The position numbers and the translations under genes were made by a program. Shown one piece after another: positions 3,064-59,679 of a stretch of DNA of 60,000 nt. The notes below the pieces were generated by a model, which worked only from the letters and a program-made list of their open reading frames with translations, searched no databases and was not told the DNA's origin. This stretch comes from Chiloscyllium plagiosum (Eukaryota): the NCBI RefSeq assembly GCF_004010195.1, contig NC_057753.1, positions 12,887,446 through 12,947,445 on the forward strand, written 5' to 3'. Position 1 is the stretch's first letter. The number at the start of each line of letters is the position of its first letter.

Positions 3064-3534
3064 TTTTCTCTCCAGGGTTCTCTGCATCTCTGCAGATTTG
3101 TGAACCCCATGGCACAGAGATGTATGGCCATGCTGGGCATAATTCCGGCGATATTGAAATATCGTTACTTTACTTTGGGCAAATTATCAAAGCATCTTCC
3201 AGTTAAAACTGGAAACTTCTCTTCACTCTCCATGGTAGACATCTTTAGTTAATATCTTGGAGCTTCGCAATGATACCTAATTTACAAGAACATTGTTGGA
3301 GTGGCGTAGGTTGTCAAATAACGGGAGTCCTGAATATTGCAATATCGCTTCGAATCATTAATTTAAATTTATCTTTTGACATTGAATTTTTGCAATTCAA
3401 TCCAGTAACACAGTTACAATATGTTTCAAAAGTCGAACAATAAACACAACGCCTGTAACGTGCAGTACATATTGAGAATATAATTCACGAGGCAACAACA
3501 CCATCATATTCAGTGAAAGTCATAAGGAGCACAT
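3064..3534 (-). pseudogene. TCR alpha/delta-like V relic (leader 3489-3534; V ending ~3103; degenerate 23-RSS 3064-3102)
   Basis: 46-nt phase-1 leader MCSL*LSLNMMVLLP|GTGAAT. V remnant ...EAPRY*LKMST...MAIHLCAMG, then CACAAAT + 23 nt + poor nonamer. Resembles the V at 25.3 kb. Confidence 0.65.
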
Positions 3535-4696
3535 GGTGTCTGGTTTAGAGTTGAACAAGAAATTAAGAGAATATCATTCGATAGTTATTCTAATCGAGAT
3601 CAGTATCAGACTTTGGTTAGTTAGAAGATAGGGTCTTCCCTTGAGGCATGATTGGCTGTCCTGATCACAGCTACATGACAATTATTGAGAGCCATTGTCA
3701 TCATCTTCCTCCGATTGTTCCTCTGTCTTTCAAAATATCCGTTTTTCTCTGTGTCTTTTCCTTGATCTCTGTCGCTGTAGTGAAACGAGCTCCGCTTGAA
3801 ATAGACGTTATGTCTGTAGTAAAATATATCGCAATGAAGACTGGATAAATAATCTTGAAATGAACACAGTTTGACAGGTTTAACAAACACAAACCAGAGT
3901 CCAACAGCAGATGATGAGGAATCCATGTAGAATTCACGCTTTAGAACTGGATTGAAAGTTGATCCATCAATTAGTTTAACCCTAATGACAGAACACTGAT
4001 CAAAGACCATTCAAACAGCACCCTGAAATTAAAATTGTTAAGCACTGACTGAGGATCTGAAGTACACATGAAGTCAAAGATAAATAAACGGATGGATTAA
4101 TGTATTCTGAGACGATAGAGAGAAAAAACAATGCATTTTATCAGATTTAATAATTCCAAAATGTTGATAATTATTTTGTTTGCAAATATCGGCAATTATA
4201 TCTTCATGAAGTATTTCATCCACTGCTGCAAAATGAGTGTTGAGGTGGTGAGAGAGAGAGAGAGAAAGAGAGAGAGAGGCAGAGAAGGGTTTAGACTAAT
4301 AGACAGAAAGAGAACAGGCTAGGCGTTTCTATCCTAGTTTCAACAGGCAGCCAACCCCGAAGGTGATATTAAATTACGTCTGTTTAGAACACCCCAGAAA
4401 AATCCTGAATTCTGCCTATCAGGCTCTCTATATAGGAGAATGTCAAACTCTCCCCTTTGCTGTTCCAGCGCCATCGCTTCGATCCTGACATCGTCAGCGA
4501 ATCCTGATTTGTAAACAAACGATTGAATGACTTGTGTCCTATCTGTCTTCGCCGTCGTGAACATAAAGTCGTGCAAACACTTAATCTCAATTGGAGCTCT
4601 AAGGTTCTTGATATTTTATGAGATTTTTCAATCAGACGCCTTGTTTTACCATTTCTAAATACATTGTGGTGTTTGCATGTTGTTTATTTTCTTCAG

Positions 4697-5005
4697 CGAT
4701 TTTCTATGGCGATCAGAGCTCTCAAGATAATTAGATGATCTGCCTGGAAATTCAATGAATTGAACTTAATTGCAGGCTCTAAATTAGCACTGGGCGTATG
4801 GTGGCCTGGTATCGACAAATGTTACCAAAGGCTCCAACATATACGAGGGTGATCAGAGCACAGGCCATTACATGCTGTCCTTTGACCGCGTGAAGAAGTT
4901 GAACATCATCCCTATCGGTGATTCTGTGGTCGAGGATGTTGGAATGTACTACTGTGGAAAGGCAGACATAGTGAGGCAAATTTCGTTTCTGGCTGTGCAA
5001 CATCT
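4697..5005 (+). pseudogene. TCR/Ig-type V pseudogene with 23-RSS (heptamer 4967-4973, nonamer 4997-5005)
   Basis: Acceptor TTCTTCAG at 4696; IELNCRL*ISTGRMVAWYRQMLPKAP...DSVVEDVGMYYCGKA; RSS CATAGTG-23-GCAACATCT. Stops and a frameshift. Confidence 0.8.
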
Positions 5006-5248
5006 TGGCAGTACTATGTCTCTCGTTTCCCTTTAACTTTTTCTGTACGATAATTTAAAAAAAAAACAGTGATCCCAGTAAGAATTACTCTCTGATGTTT
5101 AAACTTGCCAAGCGATTAATGTACAAAATGTTAATAACTGTTGCGACAGATTGAATATAAGAAGTTTCTTCAAAAAAGGTTCCCTGTTGTAAGACGCTTC
5201 AGATAAAGGAATAAGAGTTTCAAACGATGACTTTGTCTTCGAAATGAC

Positions 5249-5345
<97 letters not shown>
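5249..5345. repeat. (TAGA)n microsatellite, ~24 units
   Basis: Direct reading. Confidence 0.98.
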
Positions 5346-6041
5346 GAGGTAAAAGCAACATTCATATGACACAAACACCAGCTTGTGACCATTTTCCAAC
5401 TAAAAAGCATATGTGACTATCATTCCCGCTGAGAACCGACGAGCAAAGTTCTGAGGGTTTCCATTCAACAGACACTGGATCAACATTTCAATGTCCTGGC
5501 TGTAAGAGTAGGTCTGCGGGCAAGAATCGCACCTCAACTAACTCATCTCCTGACTCCCAAAGCCTGTCTACCATCCACAAGACACAATCATGAGTATGCT
5601 GCAGTACCCTCCATTTTCCAAAACAGTGCAGCTGCAACAACATCCAAGAAGCTTAAAACTATTCATGGCAAAGTGTTTTGTTTGCAGCTCTCAGAGAACA
5701 ACAGGTTTTTGTTGAAATCAAAATGCTTACTCTGAAGTGATATTAATTCCCTGCAAAGGAAATAGTTACAATTACACTTAAAGAGAGAGGATTGTACTGA
5801 CAATATTCAATTAGTTAGCATTTGAACTAGAAAAAACAGTAAGTTTCAGAGAATAATGTATCGAGATAGCCAAATGCATGAATCGTGTTTTCAGACATAA
5901 AGTAACACTGCAAGAGAACGTTCATGTTCAGCGTTTTGTGTTTCATAATTGTTAACACGTTTCGTGGTTCTCTGTAAGCTGTTTGTATTTCTAGACGTGA
6001 AAGCGCCCTCTGATGAGCACGAACTAGAATTCTCAAGTTGA

Positions 6042-6554
6042 GGTTTTGTACCTTGTCTGTTGCAGCCCTGCAATATTGTGGGCTCCACAGCACAGAAATA
6101 CACAGCGTTGTCAGAAATGCGAATTGTTAAGTCGGTGATCTTCTCAGCTATTTCAAACGTAGAAGAAAATCCACCAGCGATGCTGTTATCCCTGCGCACA
6201 TCACTCCCAATAAGCCAAAGCATGTGTTGCGGCCGCTGCCCAAGACGTTTACTGTACAGTACACAAAAAGGTGAGAGCTGCTGGTCTTCACGTTGAAGAT
6301 TAGTTTAGTATTCTTTGCTTATTCAAACGTCTTTTCAGCAAAGGGCTGTCCCACTGTATCCTGCTGGCTCCATTCTGACATATAAAATGTAATAAATGAC
6401 AATCGGTGTCAGCCTTATATTGATCAACATATTCGTCATAACGACATCAACCAACAAATAACATTTATATTGTAGCCATCATTTCTTTTCTTAGAAGGAG
6501 ATACTTACTCACAAAGTTTAAAATGATGAGAAACTGTGTGAGGCATTTCTCCAT
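6042..6554 (-). pseudogene. TCR alpha/delta-like V pseudogene (leader 6509-6554, V exon 6081-6374, 23-RSS 6042-6080)
   Basis: Leader MEKCLTQFLIILNFV|GTAAGT; V reads DTVGQPFAEKTFE*...GQRPQHMLW...LTIRISDNAVYFCAVEP; RSS CACAATA-23-TACAAAACC. One stop, and a frameshift at the Trp41 codon. Confidence 0.9.
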
Positions 6555-7700: not shown

Positions 7701-9799
7701 TTGCGTTTTCACATCGCTGGTTGGAACAATTACATTGCATTCGAAGGAAATTTAATGGAAGGATATTGAAACTCAGGTACCGGCACTTCTGGAATTTGAA
7801 GCCAGGCATGCCTGTTTCGTGGGTAACTGCCGACTAAGCCACAGTGCCGACTTTAGGCTGTTTCTGTCAATATCCTAGGATACTCTTCCATAGATTTTGT
7901 TTTCTGTTTCAATGTTGTTGAGTGTGAATGTCAAATATGAAAAAAAAAACGCACAACCGACTCTGAATAGTCACCAGTAAAATCGCACAGAAAGTAACAA
8001 TGTTGCACATGGCCCTTTCCCGATCTCTGATTTGGAACTGCAAGTTTAAAAAGACTGAATCATTCAATACGGAAGTCGCTCACTGGAATAGGATTTATTG
8101 TCAAATGCTCATTACCCCAGAAATCGAAATGATGAGCCACTTTTTAAACTATTATACTCCTTGGCACTCGGTGCAATCGTGATGGCAATGTGGATCGATT
8201 TCCAGAAGTCCAGAACTCAGACCTAGCGACTGAATGAACACCAATATATTTCCAACTCACAAGACTGTATGTTTTGGAGGATGCCTTGTCTGTGACAGTT
8301 TTCCCACATATCTGTTACCATTCTCTTTTTCTGGATGGAAGCAAACTCTAATTGGACTGAATCAGCAGGTTTAGGGTCTATGTGCTATTTGCATTCAGAA
8401 ATTCGTTTGCATTTGGAAAATTCCCATAAGAGAAAAAAGTGAGAGACAAAAGATATCCAGACGCAAGTGTATGCTGATACAACAATTTCAGTGAGGTTTT
8501 ACATTTTGTTTCCTTCAGCTAGACCCTATCATACCTGGAATTTCCTGGAATTGCTGTTTAAATTTAAATCAGTGTTTGTCTCACTATACCCATTGTGACT
8601 TTTCGTGCCTCTCGCACGGATTCACTCAGTGTCTGTTGAGTTCCTTCTCTTTAGTTCTCATTTTCCATGTTTCCATGTTGCAACATGTCTTTCTCTTACG
8701 GAATTGTCATCTCAGTCTCTCCATTATTATCGTTAACCTTCCTGTCTTGTCCGAAATATTGAGTGTTTTTTTTTTCCTATTATTTATTTTCCCGAATCTT
8801 CATCAGGTTTTTATCTGCTGACTGGTCCGCAGTATTTTTCCTTGAATCTCAATCCGCTTCACTTCTGGATCTCCTCACAATTGGAAACAAGCATGTCCAT
8901 TTTCTGTGAAGAAAGTTCTCGCATTTAAAACAGATTTCTTTTATTTTGTAGTGCCCTTAGTGGACAGTCCGCACTCTCTCAATCCCAACAGAAGGTTCCA
9001 AAGGAGGCAGCGTCATTTGAAGTCTAGTGAATTGTTTGTTGTTAAACCCATAGAACTGCAGATGAGGAAAATCAGAAATAAAAACAGAAATTGCTGGAAA
9101 TCTCAGCAGGTCTAGCAACATTTGTGTTGAAAAAAAAACAATTATCTCTACCAGGTGAGTGACCCTTCCTCAGAAATGCCTGTTGTGTTTTGTTATATAA
9201 ATTCTGATGAACGATTAAGTTTTTATGAATAACCACGTGATTTTCTTTTAACATAGCAGCTCCCACAGTTCATCATTTCACATCTACAGTTCCTACTTCT
9301 CCATTCCTATTGGATCTTTCAAATAGCCTCAATTTTATTCATATTAAATGAAGAACTCAACTTACTGACGACGTCGGTGGGTTTAAGCCATGATAATTGA
9401 GCAGGGCTTCGATAGGTCTCTTTTCATTAGCTGTCGGGAGCCAAAATGTTTGTACTCATATATTAGTTTTGGAAAGTTCAGCACTGATACCAGCACGATC
9501 TGAGCTGTTCTTCTTCGCTTGGCCCAGCTCATAGACTAAAGTATTTGAAAGGACCACATGTGGTTTAATTTTTGTCATGGTTCCTGTTTCAGTCACCACT
9601 GTCCATATGATGTCAGGAACTCGAGAACAAACGAGCAGTGAGATGTTTGATGACAGCTGCTGCTGTTGTCAAGAACGAGCAATTCTGGATACTTCCTAAC
9701 ATGAACACAATTCTTGAGGTTCACAGTTTCATCATCAGATTGCACTGTGCAAATCCACATCAATTGTCTACAAACATGACTGTTGCTTTACATTCATTC

Positions 9800-9995
9800 T
9801 TCACAACTGCAGCTGTCATAACTGGTAACACATTTCAAGATCTATACACTCTTCCACATTCAGGAATAACTGGAATCTTTTGTCTATTTCGAAAATGTTT
9901 AGTCCGATGTTAGTAGGGACCATAGCATGACGATAACATGTCAGAGTTGTGTATTTCTAATTTTTTTCAGGTGTTGGTGGTACATATTCAGTCTT
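9800..9995 (+). pseudogene. Truncated V fragment (promoter/leader region and start of V exon), paralogous to 11220-11420
   Basis: Aligns with the region upstream of the 11.4 kb V; TTTTCAG|GTGTTGGTGGTACA versus CTGCAG|GTGTTCGTGGTGCA, after which homology stops. Confidence 0.6.
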
Positions 9996-10029
9996 TGTTT
10001 TTAAAAAGTGTTCAATCTTAAACATATAA

Positions 10030-10620
10030 ATTTGTGAAAGTATATTCGCGTTAGACAAGTACTTGAGCTGGATTAAAGCAAATTTGGGTTATTGTATGCA
10101 TTTTTGGCCTTTCCCTTACACCCGGAATGAAAGACACAAAACACAACGGATGAGCAATGTATGAAAATGATGCTAGAATTGAATTGCGTTAATTATGAGA
10201 AATTAATGTGAGGGCTTGGGGTCCTTTCTCTGCTTGCGAGAAGACTAAAGGCTAACCTCCCAGACGGCTTTTCAATGGATTATATAGTTCTTAGGTTCCA
10301 GATATGGAGAGCAATATTCCACTTGAGGAGGATTCCAGTTCTATAAGAATACATAGACACATTTAAGTGACACAACGTTCTCCAACGAGGATTTGAGGAG
10401 AAATTTCTTTAGTTGGTGAACATGCAGAAAGTGGTTGCAATCACCAGAAGGAGCATTTATAATGAACAATAAAGATACATTTAAAGGGCGCTCCAGTTAA
10501 ACGTGTGAAGGAGAGGGGTGGAGAGATTTGCAGATCGAATGAGAGGATGAAGTATGCAGAATGCTTTCTTTATTATGCACATGGACTTCCACCTGACGTG
10601 CCGAATGATCTTGTTTTTCC
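10030..10620 (+). mobile_element. Old degenerate CR1 3-prime fragment
   Basis: Remnants of the TATTGT..CA..TTTTGG motif, GAGAAGACTAAAGG and TTGAGGAGAAATTTCTTT. Confidence 0.55.
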
Positions 10621-10734
10621 TTTCTAAGTCCGATCTATTAATTTGATAGCACTATGAATTGCCACCTTCAGTTCAGATCGCTCAAACATTTAATTGCTAA
10701 TTTCCAATTTTTTGAAACTCGATTTCTATATCTG

Positions 10735-11038
10735 AGCGATCGAATTTCTGTTACTCAGCGGTATCCCACGCTCAGACCAACAGACCCTGACGATACTATT
10801 GAAACTTCACCTGCGCGACAATGCTTAGTTTTTCAACTGTTGTCGTCAGTAACTGGGCAAACAGCCTAAGTTCACATTTTTAAAGTGCACAAACTTTGCG
10901 ACTGAACCTAGGCAGGTTTTATTGAGGTCCGGTTTATTGATTCACTCCTGCAGTCAGAGAATTACTACCAATTGCTTGTATTGGAGCTGCTGCTGTCTGA
11001 TACTGCGATCTGTTACCGTGCATGGGAACGAATGCCTC
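10735..11038 (+). pseudogene. Degenerate TCR V relic
   Basis: ISVTQRYPTL..., CCRQ*LGKQPKFTF and RFIDSLLQSENYYQLLVLELLLSDTAICYRAWE match FR1, FR2 and FR3 patterns; RSS barely recognisable. Confidence 0.65.
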
Positions 11039-11396
11039 ATACAATTGTTTTCTGGTTGGCATCTGCTGTATTTTCACAGCTTCGAACAGCGGGTCACACA
11101 CAGACACTTCAGTACTTTCCTGTGAGAGAATTGCTGTGTGATTAGTTCATGATCACTCACAAAAAACACACATTAACTGCCTACACATATGGTAGTGTTT
11201 TATATTCATTATTTGCAACTGCAGCGCTCATAACTGGTAAAACATTCTAAAATCTACACACTCTTCAACATACTGACATTACTCACATCGTTTTAAATGC
11301 ACTTTCTCTCTGATTAGAAAGTGTGCAGTCACAGATGGTAACAGGTACCATAACGATGATAACATATTGAAGTCCTATGTTTCTAAATTTCTGCAG

Positions 11397-11706
11397 GTGT
11401 TCGTGGTGCAGACTCAATCTCGCAGGAGGTGGTCTCAGCAATGAAAGTTGAAGGCAATGCGTTGATTTTTATTTACGCTTATTTGGTCACTGCAACTACG
11501 GAGCATTTTTGGATTTATATCGTCAGGATCGATACAAAGCACCGTCATTCTCGATCTACATCACTATCTATGATGATGTTCTCAGAGCTGAAGGTGTAGG
11601 GCTTCGATTTTTGATTAATGTTGACAGTGGGCAAAGTGAGGGGAGTTTCACCGTCCGTGATATGCGGTTGTCTGACAACACAATGTAATACTGCGGACTG
11701 AGAGAT
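11397..11706 (+). pseudogene. TCR alpha/delta-like V pseudogene, atypical family (no Cys23, LYRQ instead of WYRQ); RSS lost
   Basis: CTGCAG|GT; VRGADSISQEVVSAMKVEGNALIFIYAY...LDLYRQDRYKAPSF...EGSFTVRDMRLSDNTM*YCGLRD. Confidence 0.85.
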
Positions 11707-14671
11707 GCCAAGATTGGAACTAGAAGTAGCCTCGTAAAATGTTTTGATATTAACAATAATATCATCGTCCATCATACCGTTTCTCACAATACACAACAGG
11801 CATTTTCCTGAATTTCAATTGATGCTGCCTCCTGGGGAAGCACCTGCTGCGATTGGGATAGAACAGACGTCCAACTAATGGTTGCTACAAAGCCAAAGAA
11901 ATCTGTTTTTTTAAGCGAATTCGCTTCTATAGAAAATACTTATCTGAAATCTAAACCATGGAAGTTGTAATTTATTTCATTTCATTTTGCTGGTCTATTA
12001 TTATGGTAGAGCAGAAACATTACTGAAGAGAGGAAAACAGATTAAACGTTTCTAGTCCAGTGTTCTGCACTGACGAAAGGTCACTAGACCCGACATATTA
12101 TTGATCTTTCAACAATGATGCCAGACCTGCTGAGATTCTCCAGTAATTTGTGGTTTTGCTTTAGATCTCCAGCATCAGCAATTACTAGTTTTATATTATT
12201 GGAGAATTGGTTGAATTGTGATTGAATTCAATTTACAATCAAAAGTGAAATTTTAATCATAAAGAACATTTACCGAGAGTAATTGACCAACCTAAGGTGT
12301 TTACACGTTCTCGCTGACGCCAGGCGTGGAGACAGATTTCTCATTTATCTTCTCCAAAAAGAAAAACCCCTGCAGTACATGTTTATTACTGGTGAAGCAC
12401 ATTCTAGGCATTGAACTTTACTTCGGTTGAACCTGCAGTCAAGTTTCAGTTCCAGGTAGCGGGTATGAATATCTCTTTTCACAACGATTGGGTACGTGGA
12501 ATTGAAACACGTTGGACATTGTAAAGTCACTCTATTCAAAGGTATTGTATTGCGGGGCAAGTACATACACCGTGTCTGCTCAGCCCTTGCAATCAGTTCT
12601 TGCTATTTTCCATTACTTCGGCAGTGCCTCTGAAGTAAGTATTTGATTTTATCACCGATGCCTTGATGTCAGTGAGTGTATTTTATGGTGCCTGTTGTAA
12701 GTGATTGCCATTAGCCATGACCTTTTTTACACTGGCTGCATATTATTGACAAAAGTTTCCTTCCATAACACTAACAATCAACAAATTATCGACTGCAGTA
12801 GTAAAGGAACCCTATAATATAAGAAAGATCAGACCAGTATCTTGAGGACCAACGGGCAAGTACTTGTTTCATTGTGTGAGATGGTCCAGGCAAGAAATTA
12901 TTGAGACTCAGTAAGAAAAAAACTAAATGGTGGCAGGAGACAAAAAGCTGACCAAAGCACAGCGAATTAAACAGTAGGAAAGAAAACATTAGAAATTTCG
13001 GTAAATATAAGCATATTAGCCATCGTGACACTGAAGGACGAAGATGATCAGCAAGTGACAAAGAGACATTGTCAACGGTTCAGAACCATATGGACAAAGA
13101 ACTAAACAGTATCAACTAAATAAACTTTGTGAATTTAGGGTGGGGGAGGGAGACATGGAAAGGCACAAAGCGTACAATTAGAGACTATTGATTTAAATAT
13201 AAAATGGAATACTAGAAAATGTGAAAATGTAATGCAATATTATGAAAATGGGTGCTGATAGGAGTAAATGCAGCTATTCACTTGAAAATAAAGTTTAGTG
13301 GTCGCGAAAGTGGCCCTTATTTTGCATCAGAAAACTGTGAATGTCAGCCTTTTAACAAAGATCAGAGATGCATTTATTTCCACCACACACAGAAGATTTG
13401 ACAAATCCAGTGATCATTTCTATTTGAAATTTGTCCCAAGGCTGAGTGAGATGTTACTTTTTGTGAATTATAACTATTCACATGACATGACTTCCCTGTT
13501 GAAAATTGGATCGTTAGTGCCAGGAAGCTGGTGATCATGAACCTGTAAAAGAGTATCAGAGACTCGGGGATGGAGGTACGAACAGAATTGTTCAGAAAAT
13601 TACAGTTTCCATGTCAACAGCGATTACAGTTAATACGGTGTTTCTAGTTTTGACAACTGTTGCTGTTTTTGACAGATTTCTCAGAAAGACAAGAACTAGT
13701 AGAGGGTACCACCATAAGAATATTGACTTGGGATCACGAAGCCATCGCTATGATTTAGCTGTGCAATATACTTTGGTACAAGTCGTTGAGACAGAATGCA
13801 CTAGATGTAGTTTCAGAAAGATTTGGTGCTCCTGCACTTGAAAAGGGACAAGAGGACATCGAAGTCTGGATAGTGGGCTAACACAACGCAGTGCCAACTC
13901 CAGTTTTATCAGACATGAATGGCAATGAACTGTCAAATACTGCATTGCCAAACAGTGAGGTCTTCACATGAAACTTTGGAGGGAGCTACAACAGATTAGT
14001 AGTGATTTATTTACCTTATTAGATTCTGCACTATTGTGTCACCATTTTATGATATAAAATTGAAAATTTTAAAATGTTTTTGTTACTTATTCGTGTGCTT
14101 CTATATTTACTCATCGCTTTGTAAATGTTTGATTTTTGTTTTCTTCCATTGGAACATATTACATTTTTGGATGATAGATAGATGCTATTTTAAATAAAGT
14201 GATTTTTTTAAGAAAACGCAATAATAATTTTCCATAAATAAAGTGCAATTCTCTGAAGCGAAATGTTTCACACTATTTCATCTGAAAGATGACATTGTTG
14301 GAAATCTAAACACTAGCTTTCCAGTTCTCACACTTTCTCACGCAGATTTTCTCAATCTTTCTCTTTTCCCATCTCTTACTGATAATTAATCATTTTAATC
14401 CTTTTGCAGAGAAGATCCACTCTGTTTGGTTGCACCATTTATTTCCTGGTCTCCACAGATCTCCTTGTTATTGTCACAACGTTGTAATATTAAACTGTAG
14501 TGGTAAATTTTAATTTGCGTTCAGTTTCCTGTCTATCCCATCGATGTGCAGTATGCATTTTGTCTTAACTGATTCAATTTCGAAGAATTATTCCTGGCTA
14601 ACAAATTATTTCGCTTTTGATCAATTTGTGATTTGCGATCAATTGGAAGACTGCAACACGATTCATGCAAC

Positions 14672-18714: not shown

Positions 18715-21189
18715 TCACATTAGAAAACAACTCATGAGTGTAACACAGGGACACATTAACATTTTCTTTAGCTCTTTTCGGACTTGGTTCTGCGATATTG
18801 CATAAATGAAGACGTTATTACAGGAACTGAGTAACGTGAGAAAAATGGCCATCTCTTGTAGAATGTATTGCGGGTCACTGAAATTCAGACCCGTGAAGTA
18901 ACCTTCACCTGAAACACGCACGTAAAGAAAACGCCCAACGTAAGTGGACCACAGGAGCAGGAAACTAAGAGAAATGGTGAAAAGCAGAATAATAGATCTC
19001 TTGCGGTTGATCATTTCATGATCTCCATGAGGTTCGGTGCATCGGAGCCTCCTCCGGGCTCTGCTGACTACCAAGATGTGTCCTGCAGTCATGGCGTTGA
19101 GTAGCAGAATGAGGAAAAACGGGAGAAAGGGGGTTAAAATCTGTTCTAACATGTCAAAGGCCTGCCAGAATGGATCTGTGTAATACGTGGACTTGACATC
19201 GCAGAACCAGAACACCCCATCCAGGATGTACAAGGGTTGGGTGTTGATGTAGAAAGGGACATTCTTGAGACAGCAGAGGGCACAAACTATTCCAATGACC
19301 AGCGATGCAGTTTTCTCCGTGCAGTATTTGGTTTTCAGACTCTGGCAGCAGATGGCCACGGAACGGTCTATTGTGAAGGCAACTGTCAACCAAACAGAGG
19401 CGTCCCGGATGGCAAAGGCCATCGTGATAATTAAACTACAGGCGGGGGTCGTGGATAGGACACTAAATCGAAAATAAATGCCACTTATCCTGTTGACAAT
19501 GACTGCAACAATTATGACAAGAAAATCAGTCACTGCTATTGCAAGCAGGTAGTAGGTAATGCAGCGAGACAGTCCACATCTTCTTCGTGATAAGATTACT
19601 ATCGCCACCAAGTTGGCTGTAAAAAGTAAAAATAGAGATGGAATTGGTAGCATGCACTATCCAAGTCGTAGCTAATACCGCGTTAAACAATTGGGTCTCC
19701 ACGTTCAGAATTTAGACATGTTGAAACACATTGTTAATTGCTAACATACCACAAGTTGAATTAAACATTTGTCAATACTTCGGTCATTTCAAACTGTCAC
19801 CAGCACACATTCCATTCATTGTTTCCTAATTTATTTTCTGTGCCAAAGCGTTATGCTTAAGGCAAATTAGAATATTGGCTGATCATGTTGTGACCATTGA
19901 AATCCCAATGAAATCATCAACGATATCAAACCAGATTTGTATGGCGGTCCCAGTTGAACAACGTCTCATTCGCCGAAGTTTCAAAAGAAAACCCTATTGT
20001 AATTATACTTGCCTCCCATAAAATCGTGCAACCATTTCAGCTTGCAGAGTATCTCTAACTTTTATCATGATATTTCTCAGGATAACGAGAGGGCACACAA
20101 TCGCGTTCTCCCTCTTACGAATGCCTTCCTTAGTTGAGGTTCTGTCCTTTGCTAACAAAACCTTAACATTTCGAACCCTCTTGTTCAATATTGCCGACTT
20201 TCTGTCCTGCTTTAAGATGTTCAATGTAATCTGAATCTTCAATTAAACTTTAGGCCAGTTATAGACTTAGGTCGGTCAGTTTGTTTTCTGGTTAAGCTTC
20301 CGTAACATATGTGCATACTACATTGGCAAAACGCTACATTCTCAGGTGTTAATTAACAGTGTTAAGAAATGTTAACACTATCGGTTGCTCTACGTTGTCA
20401 TTAATATGAAATGGCAAAATCATATAAAGCTGATAAACCCTTACAACAGAAAGGATAAATGCAGAAAAACTAAACCATCTTATTCTTCACCCATTTCTTA
20501 CACGCAATTCCACATTGAATAGGCAAGACCATTTTAATAATGGACTGTTGGATCGGAACTCATTCCTTAGTAACCACGGCATGCTCCCAAATGTCACACC
20601 ATATACTGTTTCATTACTGGAATTGATTCTTTACTTCAATTCATCAAATAAAATGATTGCATGTGATAAATTATCTTCCAATTCTCTGCTAATACTTCGG
20701 CTGAAATGCATTAATTTCTTTCCAAATTATTATGCGTTCTTACCAGATGGCACCAGAGATTCGAACTTGCCTTTTGCAAATTTAGAATGAAACTTAAACT
20801 TCAATAATTTCCAGATGACTGATCAGATAGTGGACAGGGCAGTTCCGAAATTTTATAATTGCTATTCCATAAATGCGAGGCTTAATGAAGTGATTATTAC
20901 CGTGTAATGCTCAAAACTGCAAGTGCAAGCAAAGTACGATAATTCACTTCGTAGAGTTAGAAAATCGCACAATCTATTGATATATTTTTCAATGCAATTC
21001 AGGTTCTTTACATTCAGGCAAAGCTGAATATTCAATAACTTCCGGCAGTTCATGGAAGGGAGGAGATAGTTTCTGTCGAGATTTACAAAACAAACATTAC
21101 ATTGTAAATGATTACTTACCAGGGACGCCAATAAGAGCTATAATGGGATAAAAGATTGCAAAGAAGAGTCCGTTTGGTGGCCCATGCAT
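18715..21189 (-). CDS. GPR139/GPR142-like class A GPCR, copy A; two exons (21120-21189 and 18715-19616), 323 aa, intact
   Basis: Exon 1 encodes MHGPPNGLFFAIFYPIIALIGVP followed by G|GTAAGT. The acceptor TTTTACAG|CC gives ANLVAIVILSRRRCGLS, and 70+902 nt is in frame. Seven hydrophobic segments with TDFLV (TM2), FTIDRSVAIC (TM3), LTPFLPF (TM5), LLLWST (TM6), SSCNNVFIY (TM7). The track ORF 18715..19653 runs into the intron. Confidence 0.9.
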
Positions 21190-23149: not shown

Positions 23150-23440
23150 TTAATTTGACCATGGAACGGGCTGTTTTCCAACACCGCATATCTCAAAGCA
23201 CAGTAACAGACAGCAGCTGCGGTTGTGAGATGTATGAACTGGTCAGTGAAGTTGAATTTGGGACCTTGATATCTTTGCCTTTGATACGACTGTGTTCACA
23301 TGTCCTGACCCTGGCTGTTGCTAACTCCACAATAAAATGCTGCCACTCATTATATCAATATCGATACAGTGTATAGTTACCTAATCTCCTTCAGAATCAA
23401 CATCTGAGGAGGACAGCTGGGCAGAATCTCCTTGACACAG
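23150..23440 (-). pseudogene. TCR alpha-like V pseudogene inside duplicated block A (degenerate 23-RSS 23150-23188; possible leader ~23543-23595)
   Basis: GDSAQLSSSDVDSEGD*VTIHCIDID...ILLWS*QQPGSG...AAVCYCALR; RSS-like TGCGGTG-23-TCAAATTAA. Confidence 0.75.
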
Positions 23441-25227: not shown

Positions 25228-25686
25228 GGTTTTTTTACAGGGACTGCTGTGCCGTACAGCAGTGTTTGTCCCATGGCACAAATGTACAAAGCACAGTCTG
25301 AGAGAAGAACCTGAGCAACATTTAAACAAAGTGTTTTCTTTCCATTGTACAAAACGGCAGACAAACTGTCTTGAAAATCTTGAGACATACCTCTCTTCCC
25401 CGTGCTGTATACTTTCACTAAATATCTCGGATTATCTCAGGATATTAAATGTACCAGAATGCAGTTCGACCAGATGCTGTGGAATAACTACAGCTCCGTC
25501 GTTCTACGAGAATTAATTTGGGAGTAGTCTGTAATACCGCATCTCCGCCATTGGTCCCTGAAACAATGCATAATCTACTAAGTGTCTGGGAAACCGTATA
25601 ACTCGTGGAGGTAACAGTGAACATTTGGACTGAGACTTACTACGCAGCATGATCAATATTATCATTTAGGAGAACAGGGAACACAT
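25228..25686 (-). pseudogene. TCR alpha/delta-like V pseudogene (leader 25641-25686, V exon 25267-25557, 23-RSS 25228-25266)
   Basis: Leader MCSLFS*MIILIMLR|GTAAGT; V reads GDAVLQTTPKL...SCSYSTASGRTAFWYI*YP...PRYLVKVYS...LNVAQVLLSDCALYICAMG; RSS AACACTG-23-AAAAAAACC. Confidence 0.9.
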
Positions 25687-34067: not shown

Positions 34068-34669
34068 GTCTCATTTATTGCATTTAATCAGAGCACAGAA
34101 ACGTCGATATAATGACCTGAAGTGAAGACCATACATGGATCCGTTGTGAAATCGTCCTTACAAGAAAATGGCATGACTCACCGAACGTTTTAGGCAAATG
34201 GCTCATGTACAGAGCCAGCACATTGAATTCAAGTTTTGGTTTGACAGACGACTGGCATATTAACTTGTTGCAATACGAATAATGGGTATGCCATTAAGTA
34301 ATGTCAGGAGTAAAAAACAATTCTTCAAAAAATAGCCGTGAGCTTGTGGCATTTTCTATCACGAAATGCTGTTGGAGAGCATTCATTAGATATATTCAAG
34401 GGAGAGCTGAGCATGGCCTTTGAAGCTAAATGGATCAAGCAGCATGAACAGAAAGTGAGACTGACACACTGGAATTGCATGATCAGCCATGATCATTTTG
34501 GGCGATGTTGCAGACTCGAAAGCCCGAATGGCCTACGCCTACACCTACATCTATTTGCTTCGAATTGATATTTCCATTTTATATCATTACCAAGTCGTGG
34601 CTATGTTATGAAATGTAGGCTTAATTTCACTGTGCTCCGAGACCCATTTACCATTCCCCATTGCACTAG

Positions 34670-42398: not shown

Positions 42399-45371
42399 AT
42401 TAAAAATCACACAACACCAGGTTCTTGTCCAACAGGTTTAATTGGAAGCAAACTAGCTTTTGGAGGATAAAGCGGATGATTTGTAGGATGGTGTTTGGAG
42501 ATTGGCAGTTGTTGGTGTTGAGTACTTCGGTTTGTTGCAGCGATGCCATCATTGTGCGGGATGCTGGTGCAGAGTGCTGAACCATCCATTGTGACGAGGA
42601 ACGTTCCCGGTTCGACTGGTCCGTGCGTGTTGAGTTTCTGTAGTGTCGCGACAGAAGCTGGGGATCCCCTGTACAATAGGTTTCAAGATGTCTTCAACAT
42701 AACCGGAGAGATTCTCACACAGGGTCCCATTGCCCGATAGGATTGGAGGTCCTTATGTGTTGGCTTTGTGTACCTTTGGAAGGCAGTAGAAATCGCCTGC
42801 ACAAGAATTACGTGGCATGAGGTCGCGTAGGAAACTCTGAAGGACTGGATCCAAAGTCCTGATCAATGTGTTTAATTCTCTGGTGTGTTCTTTGGTCTGA
42901 TCAGCTGGTAGTTGCCTGTTGAGTTCCTGGCTGTTCAGTTGTCGGCACACCTCCTTGCAGTAATCTGTGCCTTCAGTATGACGATGGCTCCTCCTTTATC
43001 TGCTGGTTTGATGACAATGCTGTGATTGGTTTTGAGAGCCCGGATGGCATTGCGTTGTGAACTGGTGATGTTTTGCTCGACCGTTTGTGTACGGCTGAAA
43101 AATCCGGCATTTATATATTTCCTGACGGTTTGAGCATACGTGTCAGACCCAGGGCAGCGGTCCTCCGGTGAGGTCCAAGTTGACACCTTCTTTGGCCGCT
43201 CCTGTACAGATCCCTGTGATGACTGTTCCAGTTCATCAGTGGTCTCATTGGGATCACTGCCGGCACATTGAAAGAATTCCCGGAGTCTCAATCATCTGAT
43301 GAACACCTCTGTGTCTGCTGCAAGAACCAACGTGTCAATTTTGGTGCTAACATTTTTATCCACACGTTCAAACATGACTTCTTCTCAATGCAGGATCTCC
43401 AACCAACAATGTACACCAGGTACATTGACGACACTTTCTTCCTCTAGACCCATGGCGAAGTGTCACTGATAAAAGTACACAGTGATATCAACAAATTTCA
43501 TCCCACCATCAAACTCACCATGGACTACTCTCGACGATGTGTCTCATTCTTGGACACATGCATCTTCATCAAGGATGGATGCCTCAGCACCACACTATAC
43601 CGAAAACCCACAGACAACCTCACAATGCTACACTTCTCCAGCTTCCACCTAAAACATATTAAAACAGCCATCCCCTATGGACAAGCCCTACGCATACACC
43701 AGATCTGCTCAGATGAGGAGGAACATGATGGGCACCTGGATGTTCTCAGGGATGTCCTCACAAGAACGGAATACGATGCTCAACTCATCGACGCCAGTTC
43801 CGACGTGCCCCAGCAAGGAGCCGTAATGACCTCCTCAGGAGACAGACACGTGCTGCAACCGACAGGGTACCCTTCGTTGTTCAGTAATTCCCGGGAGCTA
43901 AAACACAACGCCATGTTTATCGTGACCTTCAACACATTATCAATAAGACCTTCCCCACACCTCCACTGCTTGCCTTTAAACAACCGCCAAAACTCAAACA
44001 AATCAAGCTGCCCGGCTCTCAGAACCATTCCACACAACCCTGTCACGGTAGGCGCTGCAAGACGAGTCAGAGTGTGGACATAGATACCACTTTAGGGTAT
44101 AGGTTTGCTCGCTGAGCCCGTAGGTTTTGCCTACAAACTAAACCTCAACCTGAGCTACAAACCTTCACAAACCTTGCATAGATACCACCATTACAGATGG
44201 GAACACCCGCTGCCTATTACGTGGCAGGTACTCATGTGACTCAGCCAACGTTGTCTATCTTATACTTTGCAGGCAAGGATGCCCTGAAGCATGGTACATT
44301 GGGGAAACCTAGCAAAGTCTACGACAACGAATGAATGGGCACCGCACAACAATCAACAGGCAGGAGTTTTCCTTCCGAGCTGGGGAACACTTCAGTGTTC
44401 CAGGACATTCGACCTCGGACCTTCGGATGACCATCAACCAAGGCGGATTTCGGGACAGGCAGCAGCGACAAGTGGCCGAGCAGAGGTTGATAGCTGAGTT
44501 CGATACCCAAAGGGAGGGCCTCAACCGGGACCTTGGGTTCATGTCACATTACAGGTGACCACCATTGCACTATACTCACACACAGACTCTCCTACACACA
44601 CACAGACACAGACACAGGCATTCCTATACACACGCATACACACAGACATACATGTACACAGACATGCACACAGTCACACACACCCTTACAGACACACACA
44701 CTCCCACACTCACACAGGCATCCTCTCAGAGACTTAGACTACTCTACACTCAGGCAAACTGATATACACTCTCTCTCACACTCACAACCCCTAACCCAGA
44801 CAGACACACACAGACAAAGTCCCACATGCACGTATATATTTTATGCGGTGAATTTGCACTTGCAGATTTACATCATACATTGCTCAAAAACTGCATGAAT
44901 TCATGTAAAACTCTGAGCTCAAAAACTGCATGAATTCAAGTAAAACTCTGTTATCTCACCTTTTAGATTCGAATCAATCTAAACATGGCATAGACAGAGA
45001 ACACAGGGGGCTAACACCTTCAACATATTGTGTAGTTAACACCCGTTGTTACAGCTAACCTGAGAATGCAACTTCAAAAAAAACGTTTGTGATTTACACA
45101 TGAAAGAAGTGAAATTATCATGGTATTCGAACAAATGAAAGTCTCAACAGACAATCAAATTATTTTTCAAAGTATAATTTCAGTTACATCACACTGTAAA
45201 TTTTTGCTATAAATTCTGTGCCCTAGAATTATGTCCTCCACTATCATCTGATGAAGGACCGGTGCTCCGAAAACTAGAGTGCTTCCAATTAAACCTGTTG
45301 GAGTATAACCTGGTGTTGTGTGATTTTTAATTTTGTACACCCCAGTCCAACACCAGCATCTCCAAATCATG
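42399..45371 (+). mobile_element. Penelope-like element, rearranged (minus-strand RT N-terminal part ~42460-43345; plus-strand RT C-terminal part and GIY-YIG ~43350-44558; 3-prime UTR); TSD CGCAGAATAAT
   Basis: IVIKPADKGGAIV, FYCLPKVHK, LVTMDGSALCTSIPH, YTRYIDD, SFLDT, LYRKPTD and WYIGET motifs; terminal ~65-bp inverted repeat; 11-bp TSD at 42388-42398 and 45372-45382. Confidence 0.93.
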
Positions 45372-46880
45372 CGCAGAATAATGGATCTCTTGCGGTTGGT
45401 CATCTCCGAGTTTTATTGCTTCTCTGTGCCCTGGATCCTCCTGCGGGCTCTGCTAGCCATTAGAATCTGTCTTATCATCAGGACATTGAGCATGACCATA
45501 ACGTAAAATGGTGGAAAAGCGGTATAGATCTGGAAGAGCTAATCATAAGCCTGCTATTTGGTCATTTGTAGAAGTTGGCTTTGGTGTTGCAAAACCAGGA
45601 TATCCCATCTGAGATGTATGAAGGTTCAGAGATAAAGTAGTATGCAATATTCTTGATGCAGCACAGGGCACAGACTGTTGCAATGTCCAGAGATGCAGTT
45701 TTCTCTGTACAGTTTGTGCTCTTCAATGTATGACAGCAGGCGGCCACAAAACGGTCGATGGTGAAGGCGACTGTCAGCCAAACTGAGCACTCCTGCGTGT
45801 AATAGACCAGTACGATGTTAAGAGTGCACACAGGAGTGGTCGACAAGACACTTCCCCCGAAATCAATGCGGCTGATTCGATTGTGAATGACTGCGGTGAT
45901 GACAAGTAAATCAGTTACTTTGATGGCCTCCAGAGAGGAGGTTATGCACAGGAAGAGACCGCACCGTCCTCAAGAAAGGAATATAATTGCAAACAAAATT
46001 GGCTGTGTAAGATCAAAAGAGAAAGTTCTGACTGAACTAACTCAAAACACTTCCAGTCTCCGCCTTTTTTGAAACCATTGATGAGCGTTGGTCATTAAGT
46101 GCAGCATCAGACATCTGTCAATGTGATGAGCTCTGGGAGTAAACATTGCACTCTTGACACTGAGTTAATGGCAGTGGCTACGGTCCAGTTCAGGGTAAAA
46201 CGAATAATGCAGCGGCCATGAACTTATTCGTACCAAACCCTGACCACCCTTCAACCCATAAACGTTGACACACGTTGGCTTCTCGCTAATGTTGTCTCAC
46301 CAATTACAAATCTTATCCTTCGAATTTTCAGAAGTTCTCCAGTCTGGCGACATCCATTCTCGAAACGTCATACAACTCGTTGTAATCTCAAATTAACTTT
46401 CTTTGTGTGTCCCGTAAATGCCTCAAATTGATGCTTCTAAATGTGCAGGTTATGGATTTAAATAATAAAGCGCTCATCACTGGAATTATCACGCCAGATG
46501 CTTCGCTTATGTTCCTTTATTTCAGACATCCCTTTGATCAACACTTTTTGCAATGTCTTCCATTTCACAAAGCTACATTGATTTACTAAATCTGTTCTGT
46601 TGTTCACAATATGCAGTGTGGTGGCTTGAGACGATGTGTACTTTCTAATAATTGTGAAGAATGTTGTTCTGGCTAATTATTCAAAAAGACTTATCAACAT
46701 TGTGTGAATCCTTGCAGCAAAGAAGCAATTTAATAACAGTTTAAAAAGTTTGCATCCCTCCTGACGTTTTTTTTAACATTGAATACTAAGTAATTCCGAA
46801 AGCCACATTAACAATCATTCCATTCATTCAGGACTCCCAGCTTTATTGCACCCTTCCACACTGTGCATTGCGGATCCATG

Positions 46881-54468: not shown

Positions 54469-56922
54469 TCACATTATAAAACAACTCATGAGTGTAACAC
54501 AGGGACACATTAACATTTTCTTTAGCTCTTTTCGGACTTTGTTCTGCGATATTGCATAAATGAAGACGTTATTACAGGAACTGAGTAACGTGAGAAAAAT
54601 GGCCATCTCTTGTAGAATGTATTGCGGGTCACTGAAATTCAGACCCGTGAAGTAACCTTCACCTGAAATACGCACATAGAGAAAACGCCCAACGTAAGTG
54701 GCCCACAGGAGTAGGAAACTAAGAGAAATGGTGAAAAGCAGAATAATAGATCTCTTGCGGTTGCTCATCTCCTGATCTCCATGAGGTTTGGCGCATCGGA
54801 GCCTCCTCCGGGCTCTGCTGACTGCCAAGATGTGTCCTGCAGTCATGGCGTTGAGTAGCAGAATGAGGAAAAACGGGAGAAAGGGGGTTAAAATCTGTTC
54901 GAACATGTCAAAGGCCTGCCAGAATGTATCTGTGTAATACGTGGACTTGAAATCACAGAACCAGGACATCCCATCCAGGATGTACAAGGGTTGGGTGTTG
55001 ATGTAGAAAGGGACATTCTTGAGACAGCAGAGGGTGCAAGCTATTCCAATGACCAGCGATGCAGTTTTCTCCGTGCAGTATTTGGTTTTCAGGCTCTGGC
55101 AGCAGATAGCCACGGAACGGTCTATTGTGAAGGCAACTGTCAACCAAACAGAGGCGTCCCGGATCGCAAAGGCCATCGTGATAATTAAACTACAGGCGGG
55201 GGTCGTGGATAGGATACTAAATCGAAAATAAATGCCGCTTATTCTGTTGATAATGACTGCAACAGTTATTACAAGGAAATCAGTCACTGCTATTGCAAGC
55301 AGGTAGTAGGTAATGCAACGAGACAGTCCACACCTTCGTCGTGATAAGATTACCATCGCCACCAAGTTGGCTGTAAAAGTAAAAAGAGAGATGGAATTGT
55401 TATGATGCACTGTCCAAATCGTAGCTAATACCGCGTTAAACAATCGAGTTTCCACGTTCAGATTTTGACCTTTGAAAGACATTGTTAATTGCTAATATAT
55501 CAAAGTTGGATTAAATATTTGTCAATACTTCGATGATTTCAAACTGTCACCAGCACAAATTCCATTCTTTGTTTCCTAATTTATTTTCTGTGCCAAAGCG
55601 TTATGCTTAAGGCAAATTAGACCATTGGCTGATCATGTTGTTACCATTCAAAGCCCAATCAAATCATCAACGTTATCAAACCAGATGTGACTGGCTTTCC
55701 CAGTTGAACAACGTCGCATGAGCTGAATTTTCAAAAGAAAACCATATTGTGATGATAACTTCATCCCTATAAAATCTTGCAACCATTTCAGCTTGCAGGA
55801 TATCTCTGACTTATCATATTTCTCGGGATAACGAGAGGGCACACAATCTCATTTCCCTCTTACGAATGCCTTCCTTAGTTGCGGTTCTGTCCTTTGCTAA
55901 AACAAAACCTTCATATTTTGAACCCTCTTCTTCAATATTGCCGGCGTTCTGTCCTACTTTAAGATGTTCAATAAAATCTGAATCTTTAATTACACTTTAG
56001 GCCAATTATGGACTTAGGTTGTTCATTTTTTTTCTGTTTAAGCTTCTGTAACACATCACATTGTATATTCTACAGTGGCTAAACGCTACATTCTCAGGTG
56101 TTAATTAGCAGTGTTAAGAAATGTTAACGCTATCGTTTGCACCACATTGTAATTAATATGAAATAGCAAAATCAAATAAAGCTGATAAACTCTTACAGCA
56201 GAAAGGCGAAACGCAGGCAAACTAAAACATCTTACTTCTTCACCCATTTCTTACACTCAATTCCACATTGAATAAGCAAGTCCATTTTAATAATGGGACT
56301 GCTGGATCGGAACTCATTCCTTAGTAACCAAGGCAGGCCCCCAAATCTCACACCATATACTGTTTGATCACTGGAATTGATTCTTTACTTCAATTCATCA
56401 AATTCAATGATTGCATGTGATAAATTATCTTCCAATTCTCTGCTAATACTCAGGCTGAAATGCATTAATTTCTTTCCAAATTATTATGCGTTCTTACTAG
56501 ATGACTTTGCAAAGTTAGAATGAAACTTAAACTTCCATAATTACCAGATGACTGATCAGATAGTGGTCAGCGAAGTTCTGAAATTTTGTAATTGCTATTC
56601 CATAAATGCGAGGCATAATGAAGTGATTATTACCGTGAGATGCTCAAACCTGCAAGTGCAAGCAATGTACGATAATTCACTTCGTAGAGTTAGAAAATCG
56701 CACCATCTATTTATACATTTTTCAATTCAATTCAGGTTCTTGACATTCAGGCAAAGTTGAATATTGAATAAGTTCCGGCCTATCATGGAAGGGAGTAGAT
56801 TATTTCTGTCCAGATTTACGAAATAAACATTACAATGTGAATGATTACTGACCAGGGACACCAATAAGAGCGACAATGGGATAACAGACTGCAAAGACAA
56901 GTCCATTTGGTGGTCCATGCAT
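54469..56922 (-). CDS. GPR139/GPR142-like class A GPCR, copy B; two exons (56853-56922 and 54469-55370), 323 aa, intact
   Basis: Exon 1 encodes MHGPPNGLVFAVCYPIVALIGVP followed by G|GTCAGT; same acceptor and exon lengths as copy A. About 24 amino-acid differences from copy A by manual alignment, with no indels. Confidence 0.9.
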
Positions 56923-56992: not shown

Positions 56993-56999
56993 ATTTATA
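56993..56999 (-). promoter_or_regulatory. Putative TATA box of GPCR copy B
   Basis: TATAAAT at the equivalent position to copy A. Confidence 0.5.
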
Positions 57000-57374
57000 C
57001 CGAGTGAGAGTCTCCAGAGGACCAATTAAGTTCCAACATGCACATGAGTTACATTTCAATGACAGAATAGATTATCTCAAATCTGTAATATCGACAATGT
57101 AAGTAATTCGTCTGTATGAGTAACGTACAGCTGGATGTAAATTCTGTACTTTCTCGTTCTCACAAGCCATGACTTTATATTGTCCAGTCTTTATTATGTA
57201 TCATCGATGATGAGAGAGACTTAGCTTGTGTCATATTTCAGAGCTAAAATGAATTATCCTTTTCTTCCACATGCCCAATTATTAGATGCTTTAATGTGTC
57301 TGTATATGCATTTCTTTCATCGGTGTTTTGTATTCATTGTTTTAATTTTATGTTAACATATTCTACCGCCCTCG

Positions 57375-57572
57375 GAGAAAGTGAGCACTGCAGATGCAGA
57401 ATATTAGTGTCGAAAAGTGTGGCAATGGAAAAGCACGGCAGGTCAGGCAGCATCCGACAAGTAGGAGAAGCGATGTTTTGGACATTCTGATGAAGGGCTT
57501 TTGTCCGAAATGTCCATTTTCCTGCTCCTCGGATGCTCCCTGACCCGATGTGCTTTTCCAGTACCACACTGA
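57375..57572. mobile_element. Penelope-derived palindromic element (counterpart of 21870-22070)
   Basis: Same arms, with CTGATGAAGGGCTTTTGTCCGAAAT. Confidence 0.8.
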
Positions 57573-58656
57573 TATAAATACAATTCGTTGAGCATGATTC
57601 GCTGACAGTTGCACACAGATTGAATAGGTAAGAAAGAAGATAATTGGAAAGGTGACATTTATTGCAAAAGGAATAAAATTTAAAAGTTGGGAGATGTTGC
57701 TGCGACTGTACAAAGCATTATTGAGAGTGGGAGCATTCTTAGAATTTTGGTTCCCTCATCTGAAGAAGGATGTAGTCTTAGTAGACGCAGTTATATGACA
57801 TTAAATGGACTGATTCCAAAGATGATTGATTTGACTTATGCATGGAGATAACTCATGAATTGAAGCGTAATTGAATATTTACTAATTTCCTAGATGCATG
57901 TAGTTACAAAAGCATTCACGAAGCTTGGCACCATTCGGTACAAAGCAAAGCACTTGACTGGCATCACATCCACAAGCAGCCAATCCCCACTGACGAGAAC
58001 TGCTGCCAGCAGTGTGTGCACCTTACAAAACGCACTGCAGAAATTCACTATTGATAATTATCCAGCAACTTTCAATCTTAACACCATTTACTTTAAGGAG
58101 GACAAGTGCAGATATATGAGAACGCCACCAGCAGCAAGTTCGCTTTGATGCCACTCGCCATCCAGTCTTGGAAACATATTACCATTCTCCCAGTGACGCC
58201 CGATCGAAGTCCTGGAATTCCACTCCACAGGGCATTGTGTGTCAGCCTGCAGCACAGGAAGTACAACAAATCCCGCTGTATTGTATTCCTGCTCATCAGG
58301 TTGCCATTCAAGTGCAGTCAGCTCCCCACAGATGGATTTAACAGTCCCAGAGAGGCACAGGTATTGAGATGCGAACTTCCTGAAACATAGCAACAAATAA
58401 TTCAGGTTGGAAAGGAGAACAAGTATCCTCAAATCCGATTCTGTGATGGATTGTTGAGTCCAAGTGAAAGCTGCAGGCTATTTTCGCATTTTCTCTGTGA
58501 AACTGTTGGATGACTGTTAGAAACGTGTTAATTTAGACACGACTGGGGTTGTGCTTGACCAGCTAAGATCGCATTCGACATTGCAGCTATATCTGTCCAT
58601 GATTCTACAACACACCCAAAAAGACACGAAATCTTCCCTCTTTGGCCTACTCAGGC

Positions 58657-58947
58657 TTAATTTGACCATGGAACGGGCTGTTTTCCAACACCGCATATCT
58701 CAAAGCACAGTAACAGACAGCACCTGCGGTTGTGAGATGTATAAACTGGTCAGGGAAATTGAATTTGGGACCTTGATATCTTTGCCTTTGATACTACTGT
58801 GTTCACATGTCCTGACCCTGGCTGTTGCCAACACCATAATAAAATACTGCCACTCATTATATCAATATTGGTACAGTGTATAGTCACCTCTTCTCCTTCA
58901 GAATCAACATCTGAGGAGGACAGCTGGGCAGAATCTCCTTGACACCG
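58657..58947 (-). pseudogene. Duplicate of the 23.2 kb V pseudogene inside block B
   Basis: DSEGEEVTIHCTNID...LLWCWQQPGSG...AVCYCALR, with the same degenerate RSS (heptamer position 58689-58695). Confidence 0.75.
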
Positions 58948-59679
58948 TAATTAAGATGAAGCATTCCAAAGCAAAAAGAGAGAGAAGAGTGTGATGGATG
59001 TTGGAAATTTGAAATTAAGCCATTTGTGAAATTATGTTTTGCCAACTATTATCTTTCACGAACCCATCACGGGCAAAGCAAATTCTAAGTAACGAAATTG
59101 TCACTGCCTGCTATGTAAAAGTGGAGGTGATCTTTGAAGTCACCCCTTCTAAATCTCTCAATCAAGAATCTGCTATTATCTCTTTGGATGTTTCCGCCTA
59201 ACGTTTTTGTTTTGTGGTCCTGCTGTAATATTGTAAGTGGTAATCTGCCCGTCAGTGAAGAGAAACACCTTCAAGTGGGCAATAATGTGCAATGTTACAT
59301 AACAAATATTTTCTCTGTTAGATCCTTATTATTGTTTTCAAGCATAATGTTATTCAACAATTTCAATAGGATCAAGGAGAGTCTGTATTTTCATATACGG
59401 GTGCAACCCACATATTAACACACATCAATTAACACATTCAAAAGCAAGTCATTTCCAGGGCATGAATTGATCATCATGTACTCGACAGTCTCAGGGGGAT
59501 ATCGATAGCTATCAATATGATTCATTCCATAACCCTGTTGACAGGTTGAAATATTGAAATTCGCACTCCATCCGGGATTCTTTCCAGCTTTTATTCGAAC
59601 TGTGTAATCCAGAAATCATTCCAACTCGTTCAGAATTCCTCGATTAACCTCAATTAAACCACATAACATTGTGGCTCAA

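Follow-up and report, generated by a model that had tools for sequence, protein, structure and literature searches.

The window analysed here, 60,000 nucleotides of contig NC_057753.1 (C44) of the shark Chiloscyllium plagiosum (C44, 15.3 Mb; genome, 3.56 Gb), runs from position 12,887,446 to 12,947,445 and contains no N. It holds two intact genes for G-protein-coupled receptors (GPCRs) of a GPR139-like family, interspersed with decayed variable (V) segments of an alpha/delta locus for the T-cell receptor (TCR). Both genes, A and B, lie on the minus strand and are built alike: a 70-nt exon 1 covers the N-terminus, which is very short, and half of the first transmembrane helix (TM1), a 1.5-kb phase 1 GT/AG intron follows, and a 900-nt exon completes a protein of 323 aa. 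In A, exon 1 (23 codons plus 1 nt, then the GT donor) occupies window positions 21120–21189 and exon 2, open from mid-TM1 to the stop, 18715–19616; in B, exon 1 occupies 56853–56922 and the likewise open exon 2, 54469–55370. The coding sequences are 95% identical and the proteins 93%, with 24 residues differing over the 322 codons compared and not a single indel. Both proteins pass the Pfam 7tm_1 model (57 and 64 bits; cut-off 30.5), and with the DRx motif and the N..Y motif of TM7 (NNVFIY) they qualify, by sequence, as class A (rhodopsin) GPCRs. At the end of TM3, A and B read DRS (window 19362–19364 in A), whereas DRF occurs there in 113 of the 124 members of the family.

An earlier note, made from this sequence alone, had counted three genes of GPR139/142 type in the window and described the receptors as open and free of indels. 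Both points stand: A and B are intact, and the third gene, C, is a pseudogene, also on the minus strand. Its 5' part (45374–46002) has stops and a frameshift, and is split from its 3' part (42191–42398) by ~3 kb of inserted DNA, the open reading frames (ORFs) of which look, by motif, retroelement-like. A Pfam scan of one of these ORFs (43448–44080) returned no match. A fourth, small and degraded GPR139-like fragment, which the earlier note did not list, lies on the plus strand at 14481–14642 (23.7 bits).

A DNA profile (nhmmer) based on 36 V loci, all of them external to the window, served to find the V relics. It matches eight loci at E ≤ 1e-5 and, more weakly, a ninth, while its best match in the reversed window has an E of 1.7. 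Relic 1 (3099–3545, minus strand; E 1e-5) is heavily degraded, and 74% identical over 404 nt to another relic; relic 2 (4700–5005, plus) has the weakest support, with E 0.013 by nhmmer and 0.004 by tblastn; and relic 3 (6040–6378, minus) retains a recognisable recombination signal sequence (RSS) of the 23 type. Relics 4 (10301–11022) and 5 (11164–11736) are on the plus strand, and relics 6 (23163–23440), 7 (25225–25911), 8 (34636–35451) and 9 (58670–58945) on the minus strand. Other remnants consist of leader or upstream sequence only: one of leader and intron at 9707–9994 (plus), one at 28413–28015 (minus) that matches an intact V in its upstream/leader region, an inverted one at 49329–48937 (minus), which is a relative of relic 5 reduced to the leader, and weaker ones at 31873–31645 and 34041–34274. 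Relics and leader-only remnants together come to ~12–14, so the earlier count of 'about 12' was fair. Also as claimed, every V in the window is broken: none is open. The description of these Vs as RSS-bearing holds for those with recognisable signals at 6040, 25225 and 34669, and fails for the others, the signals of which are degraded. Relics 6 and 9, the Vs that adjoin the two receptors, have lost the CAC of the heptamer.

Relics 5 and 8 belong to a multi-copy V family. Its members elsewhere have open frames and near-consensus RSSs, but phenylalanine in place of the first conserved cysteine (Cys23) and leucine in place of the conserved tryptophan (Trp41), so that the family is predicted from sequence to make V-domains without the canonical disulfide. 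Members occur at C44:12,298,690; 12,713,659; 12,828,833; 13,392,256; 13,419,973; and 13,436,224, among others; the three that were checked have a leader, and the member at 12,767,992 retains the cysteine.

Much of the window is occupied by a single tandem duplication of ~37 kb, the copies of which have diverged by ~10%. Unit 1 (11744–47652, ~36 kb) and unit 2 (49644 to the end of the window at 60000, and 18 kb beyond it to window-equivalent 78,008), both in plus orientation, align as collinear blocks, 83–91% identical and offset by 30–38 kb; that is, window 11.7–47.7 kb corresponds to 49.6–78.0 kb. Each unit carries a copy of one intact receptor and of three V relics. In all three V pairs the copies have deletions or frameshifts in common. 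Relic 9 is the copy of relic 6, and the two share an internal deletion, frameshifts and the loss of the heptamer; relic 7 has a duplicate at window-equivalent 62.1–62.4 kb with the same lesions, and relic 8 one at 73.1–73.4 kb with frameshifts in common. Since both copies bear the same lesions, these Vs were dead before they were copied. The duplication made no new usable V, and it is the receptor that selection has kept. Something similar occurred nearby: a second tandem block, at C44:12.667–12.714 Mb with an offset of 27–28 kb, copies a receptor together with Vs, and the two receptors of that block have a dN/dS (ratio of non-synonymous to synonymous divergence) of 0.23. Receptors and V relics do, then, duplicate together, as had been proposed, in the window and in this second block. 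The more specific picture, of a duplicated cassette in which a same-strand V lies ~2 kb upstream of each receptor, is right as to the distance—2.0 kb from the end of relic 6 to the ATG of A, and ~1.8 kb from relic 9 to that of B—and as to the shared duplication, but the unit that was duplicated is far larger than a V plus a receptor.

Could the two units be haplotypes of one region, or the product of a mis-join? With 101,977 contigs, many gaps and the C-alpha gene unplaced, the assembly is a fragmented one, which lends the idea some colour. The units differ by ~10%, however, and each has insertions of its own; the N-free sequence of the window, and an independent DNA run that covers 30 of 30 bins of the receptor region of unit 1, mostly with 0–6 differences per contig, also speak against it. 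We give an assembly artefact next to no credence.

The divergence between A and B suggests why the receptors have survived. Synonymous divergence (dS 0.10) equals the distance between the introns (0.10), and non-synonymous divergence is far lower (dN 0.033; dN/dS 0.33; Fisher p 4e-4). The rate of indels in introns and flanks predicts about six frameshifts across the two coding sequences, and there are none (P ~0.0025). Most likely, to judge from these patterns, purifying selection of their own keeps the receptors intact.

The window belongs to the distal V array in a genuine shark TCR alpha/delta locus. The array spans at least 2.35 Mb, with open Vs in both orientations, accompanied by 23-RSSs, flanking the window on either side between C44:12.167 and 14.523 Mb, and the window lies ~1.6 Mb from the joining (J) cluster and C-delta. 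Between C44:12.147 and 13.047 Mb the 72 V loci include 24 full-length V matches with an RSS, one of which has a stop in the first framework region (FR1); none of these matches is inside the window. J-like segments with FGxG and 12-RSSs number about 115, at C44:14.553–14.694 Mb; many lie in recent tandem repeats. C-delta lies between the two groups of Js, with its C exon at 14,569,270 and its transmembrane exon at 14,571,270. No C-alpha was found downstream of the J cluster up to 14.80 Mb, a region that has gaps; a search with Pfam PF09291 found no C-alpha, and the best 150 matches of a C1-set search include none on C44 close to the J cluster. The gene for C-alpha, comprising C exon, transmembrane exon and 3' untranslated region, is on an unplaced contig (C93099:6,387–9,479). 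Matches to immunoglobulin (Ig) C1-type domains occur on C44 itself at 0.6–1.4 Mb, in line with the elasmobranch antigen-receptor complex described in PMC12227049, in which IgM, IgW, IgNAR and UrIg2 are linked to TCR alpha/delta. As in that complex, alpha/delta Vs in both orientations here extend over megabases of a contig that also has Ig C1 exons. The earlier note had allowed that the region might be an orphon, remote from any J or C segment; with the J cluster, C-delta and open Vs all linked to the window on C44, we reject this.

Other parts of the array are organized differently. The Vs closest to the Js, at C44:14.44–14.52 Mb, are nearly all inverted with respect to them, and would join by inversion. 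At C44:13.39–13.48 Mb, four V families form a repeating unit of fixed mixed orientation, two plus and two minus. Far from the locus, V-like exons occur at C44:2,125,301; 2,417,199; and 2,532,058; at C45:13,594,722; and at C7:59,210,039, some of them among receptor genes; these are possibly orphons, or other genes of the Ig superfamily.

How, then, did the receptors come to be here, and what do they owe to the Vs? The reading that we favour, and hold to be probable, is that they are passengers of a duplication-prone region, in which a tandem duplication of ~37 kb copied a receptor along with Vs that were likely already dead, and that they persist under purifying selection of their own. Members of a GPR139-like family, several hundred copies strong and spread through the genome, lie between V segments of the distal array. 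Unequal crossing-over would copy whatever a block happens to contain; receptor copies under selection would remain open, and V relics and many of the receptor copies would decay. In some T cells, V–J joining of Vs that are more distal would remove or invert receptors on one of the two alleles, an event that would probably be of no consequence.

The size and spread of the family are central to this. Three genome searches, each saturated at 131–135 hits, so that all family counts are lower bounds, place at least 362 distinct loci across 28 large numbered contigs and unplaced ones; 129 of these are on C44, and 29 in the V span. A fourth search adds 71 (overlap checked by hand), for at least 430 loci genome-wide. 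Most are open, and they are found at C44:1.1–8.8 Mb, and on C8, C37, C45–C50, C27 and other contigs. Within the 1.14 Mb of V span that was read base by base there are at least 43 receptor loci, 19 of them open, in both orientations. The distal array (881 kb) has 40 (4.5 per 100 kb), of which 15–16 are intact (~1.8 per 100 kb): 15 by rule and 16 by inspection, the rule having missed an open, divergent receptor at 12,869,285. Among the 15 intact receptors tested in these 881 kb, just two, A and B, have upstream of them, at 4 kb or less, a V on the same strand, and both derive from one duplication. We therefore reject a recurrent V-plus-GPCR cassette, and the count of such cassettes that the earlier note had called for comes down to this single event. 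In a quick tree of 47 rows, 24 of them picked by species from the 120 listed database hits, the A and B subfamily clusters with proteins of eight other genera of sharks. The array's receptors belong, in the same tree, to at least three deep lineages, of which some have their closest kin outside it.

It had been suggested that the birth-and-death of V genes drives the expansion of this family. The evidence does not support this: at least 430 loci are spread over the genome, some in dense stretches free of Vs, the Vs copied with the receptor in the window were already dead, and the stretches read where Vs have multiplied have no receptors. There are none among the 21 Vs, most of them open, that crowd 89 kb at C44:13.39–13.48 Mb, and none at 14.44–14.72 Mb, where the proximal Vs form a tandem cluster and the Js follow. 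A rival reading is that duplications become fixed through selection for more Vs, and carry the local receptor subfamily along to larger numbers. At least two tandem blocks, in the window and at C44:12.667–12.714 Mb, copied Vs and receptors together; 21 of the 51 close paralogues are inside the V span; and the left edge of the receptor cluster coincides with that of the array. Set against these are the state of the Vs in the window's block before copying, the lack of receptors where Vs amplify, and the location elsewhere of 30 of the 51 close paralogues and 333 of the 362 loci, including a cluster on C45 that has no Vs. We consider such hitch-hiking unlikely.

Not everything favours the passenger reading, and several observations should be held against it. 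Branch counts, polarised on one paralogue, assign 4 synonymous and 10 non-synonymous changes to B and 8 of each to A (6 were not assigned), so that constraint on the branch of B alone, judged by these counts, appears less clear. About 1.2 Mb of the V span lies beyond the part read base by base. Two V-free stretches have 6 loci in 98 kb and 5 in 99 kb, but both of these controls were picked, from known hits, as dense; twenty spaced 10-kb blocks at C44:1.5–8.7 Mb have 4 loci in 197 kb, or 2.0 per 100 kb, about half the density inside the array, in a comparison of little power (p = 0.12 against 40 loci in ~860–880 kb). Overall, equal density of the family outside the TCR locus, which the earlier note had named as counting against its own reading, is largely borne out. 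In the 185 kb sampled at C44:9.0–12.15 Mb there is no receptor locus, neither in the 96 kb to the left of the start of the array nor in ten blocks at 9.0–11.7 Mb, and the receptor cluster begins at 12.191 Mb, nearly where the V array does (12.167 Mb). The 21 of 51 paralogues in the V span, all those counted being at least 60% identical to A, show the subfamily of A and B to be concentrated there, which points to long-standing co-residence, with local duplications adding copies. Receptors and Vs, in short, have long shared a region and duplicate together, but the receptors expand without need of Vs.

A different question is whether residence in the array matters to T cells. Upstream of the window are 11 open plus-strand Vs and 11 open minus-strand Vs with near-consensus RSSs; the Js have plus orientation. 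Given these orientations, joining of a plus-strand V would delete A and B from that allele, and joining of a minus-strand V would invert them; from the geometry, somatic deletion or inversion of both genes is possible. This arrangement would suit a functional linkage in which the chromatin of the TCR locus, or the C-alpha enhancer, drives the receptors and rearrangement gives each clone its own receptor content, and the Ig C1-type matches at 0.6–1.4 Mb of C44 accord with the same antigen-receptor setting (PMC12227049). The expression data, such as they are, lean the other way. One contig set, presumably of RNA, covers the exons only of C-alpha, to a depth of ~8, and one end hangs loose where an exon stops; at a stringency of 92%, which should also catch B, it has no contig on the exons of A, a weak negative at this depth. 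A single-cell run, of which 2% was read, gave at most one partial read on A, but just three on C-alpha. Another run, with no read on either stretch, carries no weight here. The absence of receptors from the RNA-like data argues, weakly, against their high expression in T cells, and the shared T-cell regulatory context proposed in the earlier note finds no support. Hundreds of paralogues lie outside the locus altogether, and the olfactory receptors among mammalian TRAV genes share the geometry and are not known to have a role in T cells. We regard functional linkage as improbable.

A bolder version of this idea would be that the subfamily of A and B, long resident in the V array, is rewired by V(D)J recombination, such that T-cell clones carry and express their own subsets of receptors. 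We rate it as very improbable, but were it true, plus-strand joins would delete dozens of receptors, minus-strand joins would invert them beside the C-alpha enhancer, and every T-cell clone would hold a subset of its own, out of a so far undescribed GPCR repertoire of several hundred members. The paralogues resident in the array and those in V-free regions provide a ready internal control for any link to T cells.

Their relatives help to place the receptors. At E ≤ 1e-20, 1041 database proteins match, and every species-named one among the 120 listed is from a shark or a ray; the closest among the matches listed is from a bamboo shark (77%). Shark and ray models named 'probable G-protein coupled receptor 139', of ~323 aa and many per species, are 57–77% identical, but the names are automatic. 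The best match of solved structure is human GPR139 (PDB 7VUG, 9M42), at E 5e-8 and only 36 bits. Human GPR139 has the TM1–TM3 and TM7 motifs in common with the shark receptors. It probably also has an intron at the same place within TM1. Proteins from coelacanth and silverside, encoded by a distinct single-copy GPR139-like gene, and from a related salamander gene score higher (75–114 bits). With 36 bits to human GPR139 and hundreds of closer paralogues, we reject one-to-one orthology with GPR139. Searched against the shark genome, the coelacanth protein finds a single match of 64% on C26, then 117 of 30–38%. Because the coelacanth-like gene thus has an orthologue of its own, and the rest are so much more distant, the shark family is to be placed, on sequence comparison, as a separate GPR139-related group of paralogues rather than GPR139 itself. 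The C26 gene (36,600,769–36,601,743), a single conserved GPR139-like gene distinct from GPR139, is a candidate sister of the expanded family.

Variability over 124 members of the family is 1.41 bits in extracellular loop (ECL) 2 and 1.65 in ECL3, versus 0.64 and 0.79 in intracellular loops (ICL) 1 and 2, with 1.35 in ICL3 and 1.97 in the C-terminal tail. The greater variability of ECL2 and ECL3 than of ICL1 and ICL2 is compatible with diversification of ligands, and it seems likely that the receptors work as class A GPCRs with short N-termini and diversified ligand loops. By analogy with GPR139, and by analogy only, the ligands might be amino-acid- or peptide-like. The literature searched, which excludes subscription journals, yielded no account of the family or of where it lies in a TCR locus. 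The available parts of PMC12227049 and of its two supplements make no mention of GPR or G-protein-coupled genes, and the family is not described in the available passages of PMC10620051, PMC11979771, PMC8455134, PMC12698447, PMC12529555, PMC5931798 or 10.1101/2025.06.08.657570.

The closest parallel is in mammals, where passages of PMC4574546 place olfactory receptors among the distal TRAV genes: OR10G2 and OR4E2 in human, and Olfr1507–1509 in mouse. These, too, are intact class A GPCRs from a large birth-and-death family, situated between distal Vs and exposed to V–J deletion. There are two or three of them, near TRAV1, whereas the shark has at least 43 loci (19 open) in 1.14 Mb, in both orientations, and its receptors belong to a non-olfactory, two-exon family and duplicate together with V relics. 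The shark case is the mammalian arrangement on a scale of dozens, with a different family. Trypsinogen (PRSS) clusters within TRB loci, described in passages of PMC12529555, are likewise a non-TCR multigene family inside a TCR locus, but they are clustered between the V and D–J blocks, whereas the shark receptors are dispersed singly and most of their family lies outside the locus. In annotating TCR loci of sharks, one should be prepared for receptor genes and relics by the dozen among the Vs. A count of at least 430 GPR139-like loci in a single shark genome also fits badly with the view of cartilaginous fishes as poor in GPCRs that appears in PMC8455134, and the sites at which the family is expressed would show whether sharks hold an unrecognised repertoire for chemosensation or immune sensing.

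The two ends of the locus have neighbours of their own. Just past the last J, at C44:14.709–14.720 Mb, are fragmented open frames that look, by their motifs, like those of long-terminal-repeat retroelements and retroviruses, and at C44:12.05–12.14 Mb, a cluster of C2H2 zinc-finger ORFs adjoins the distal end of the V array.

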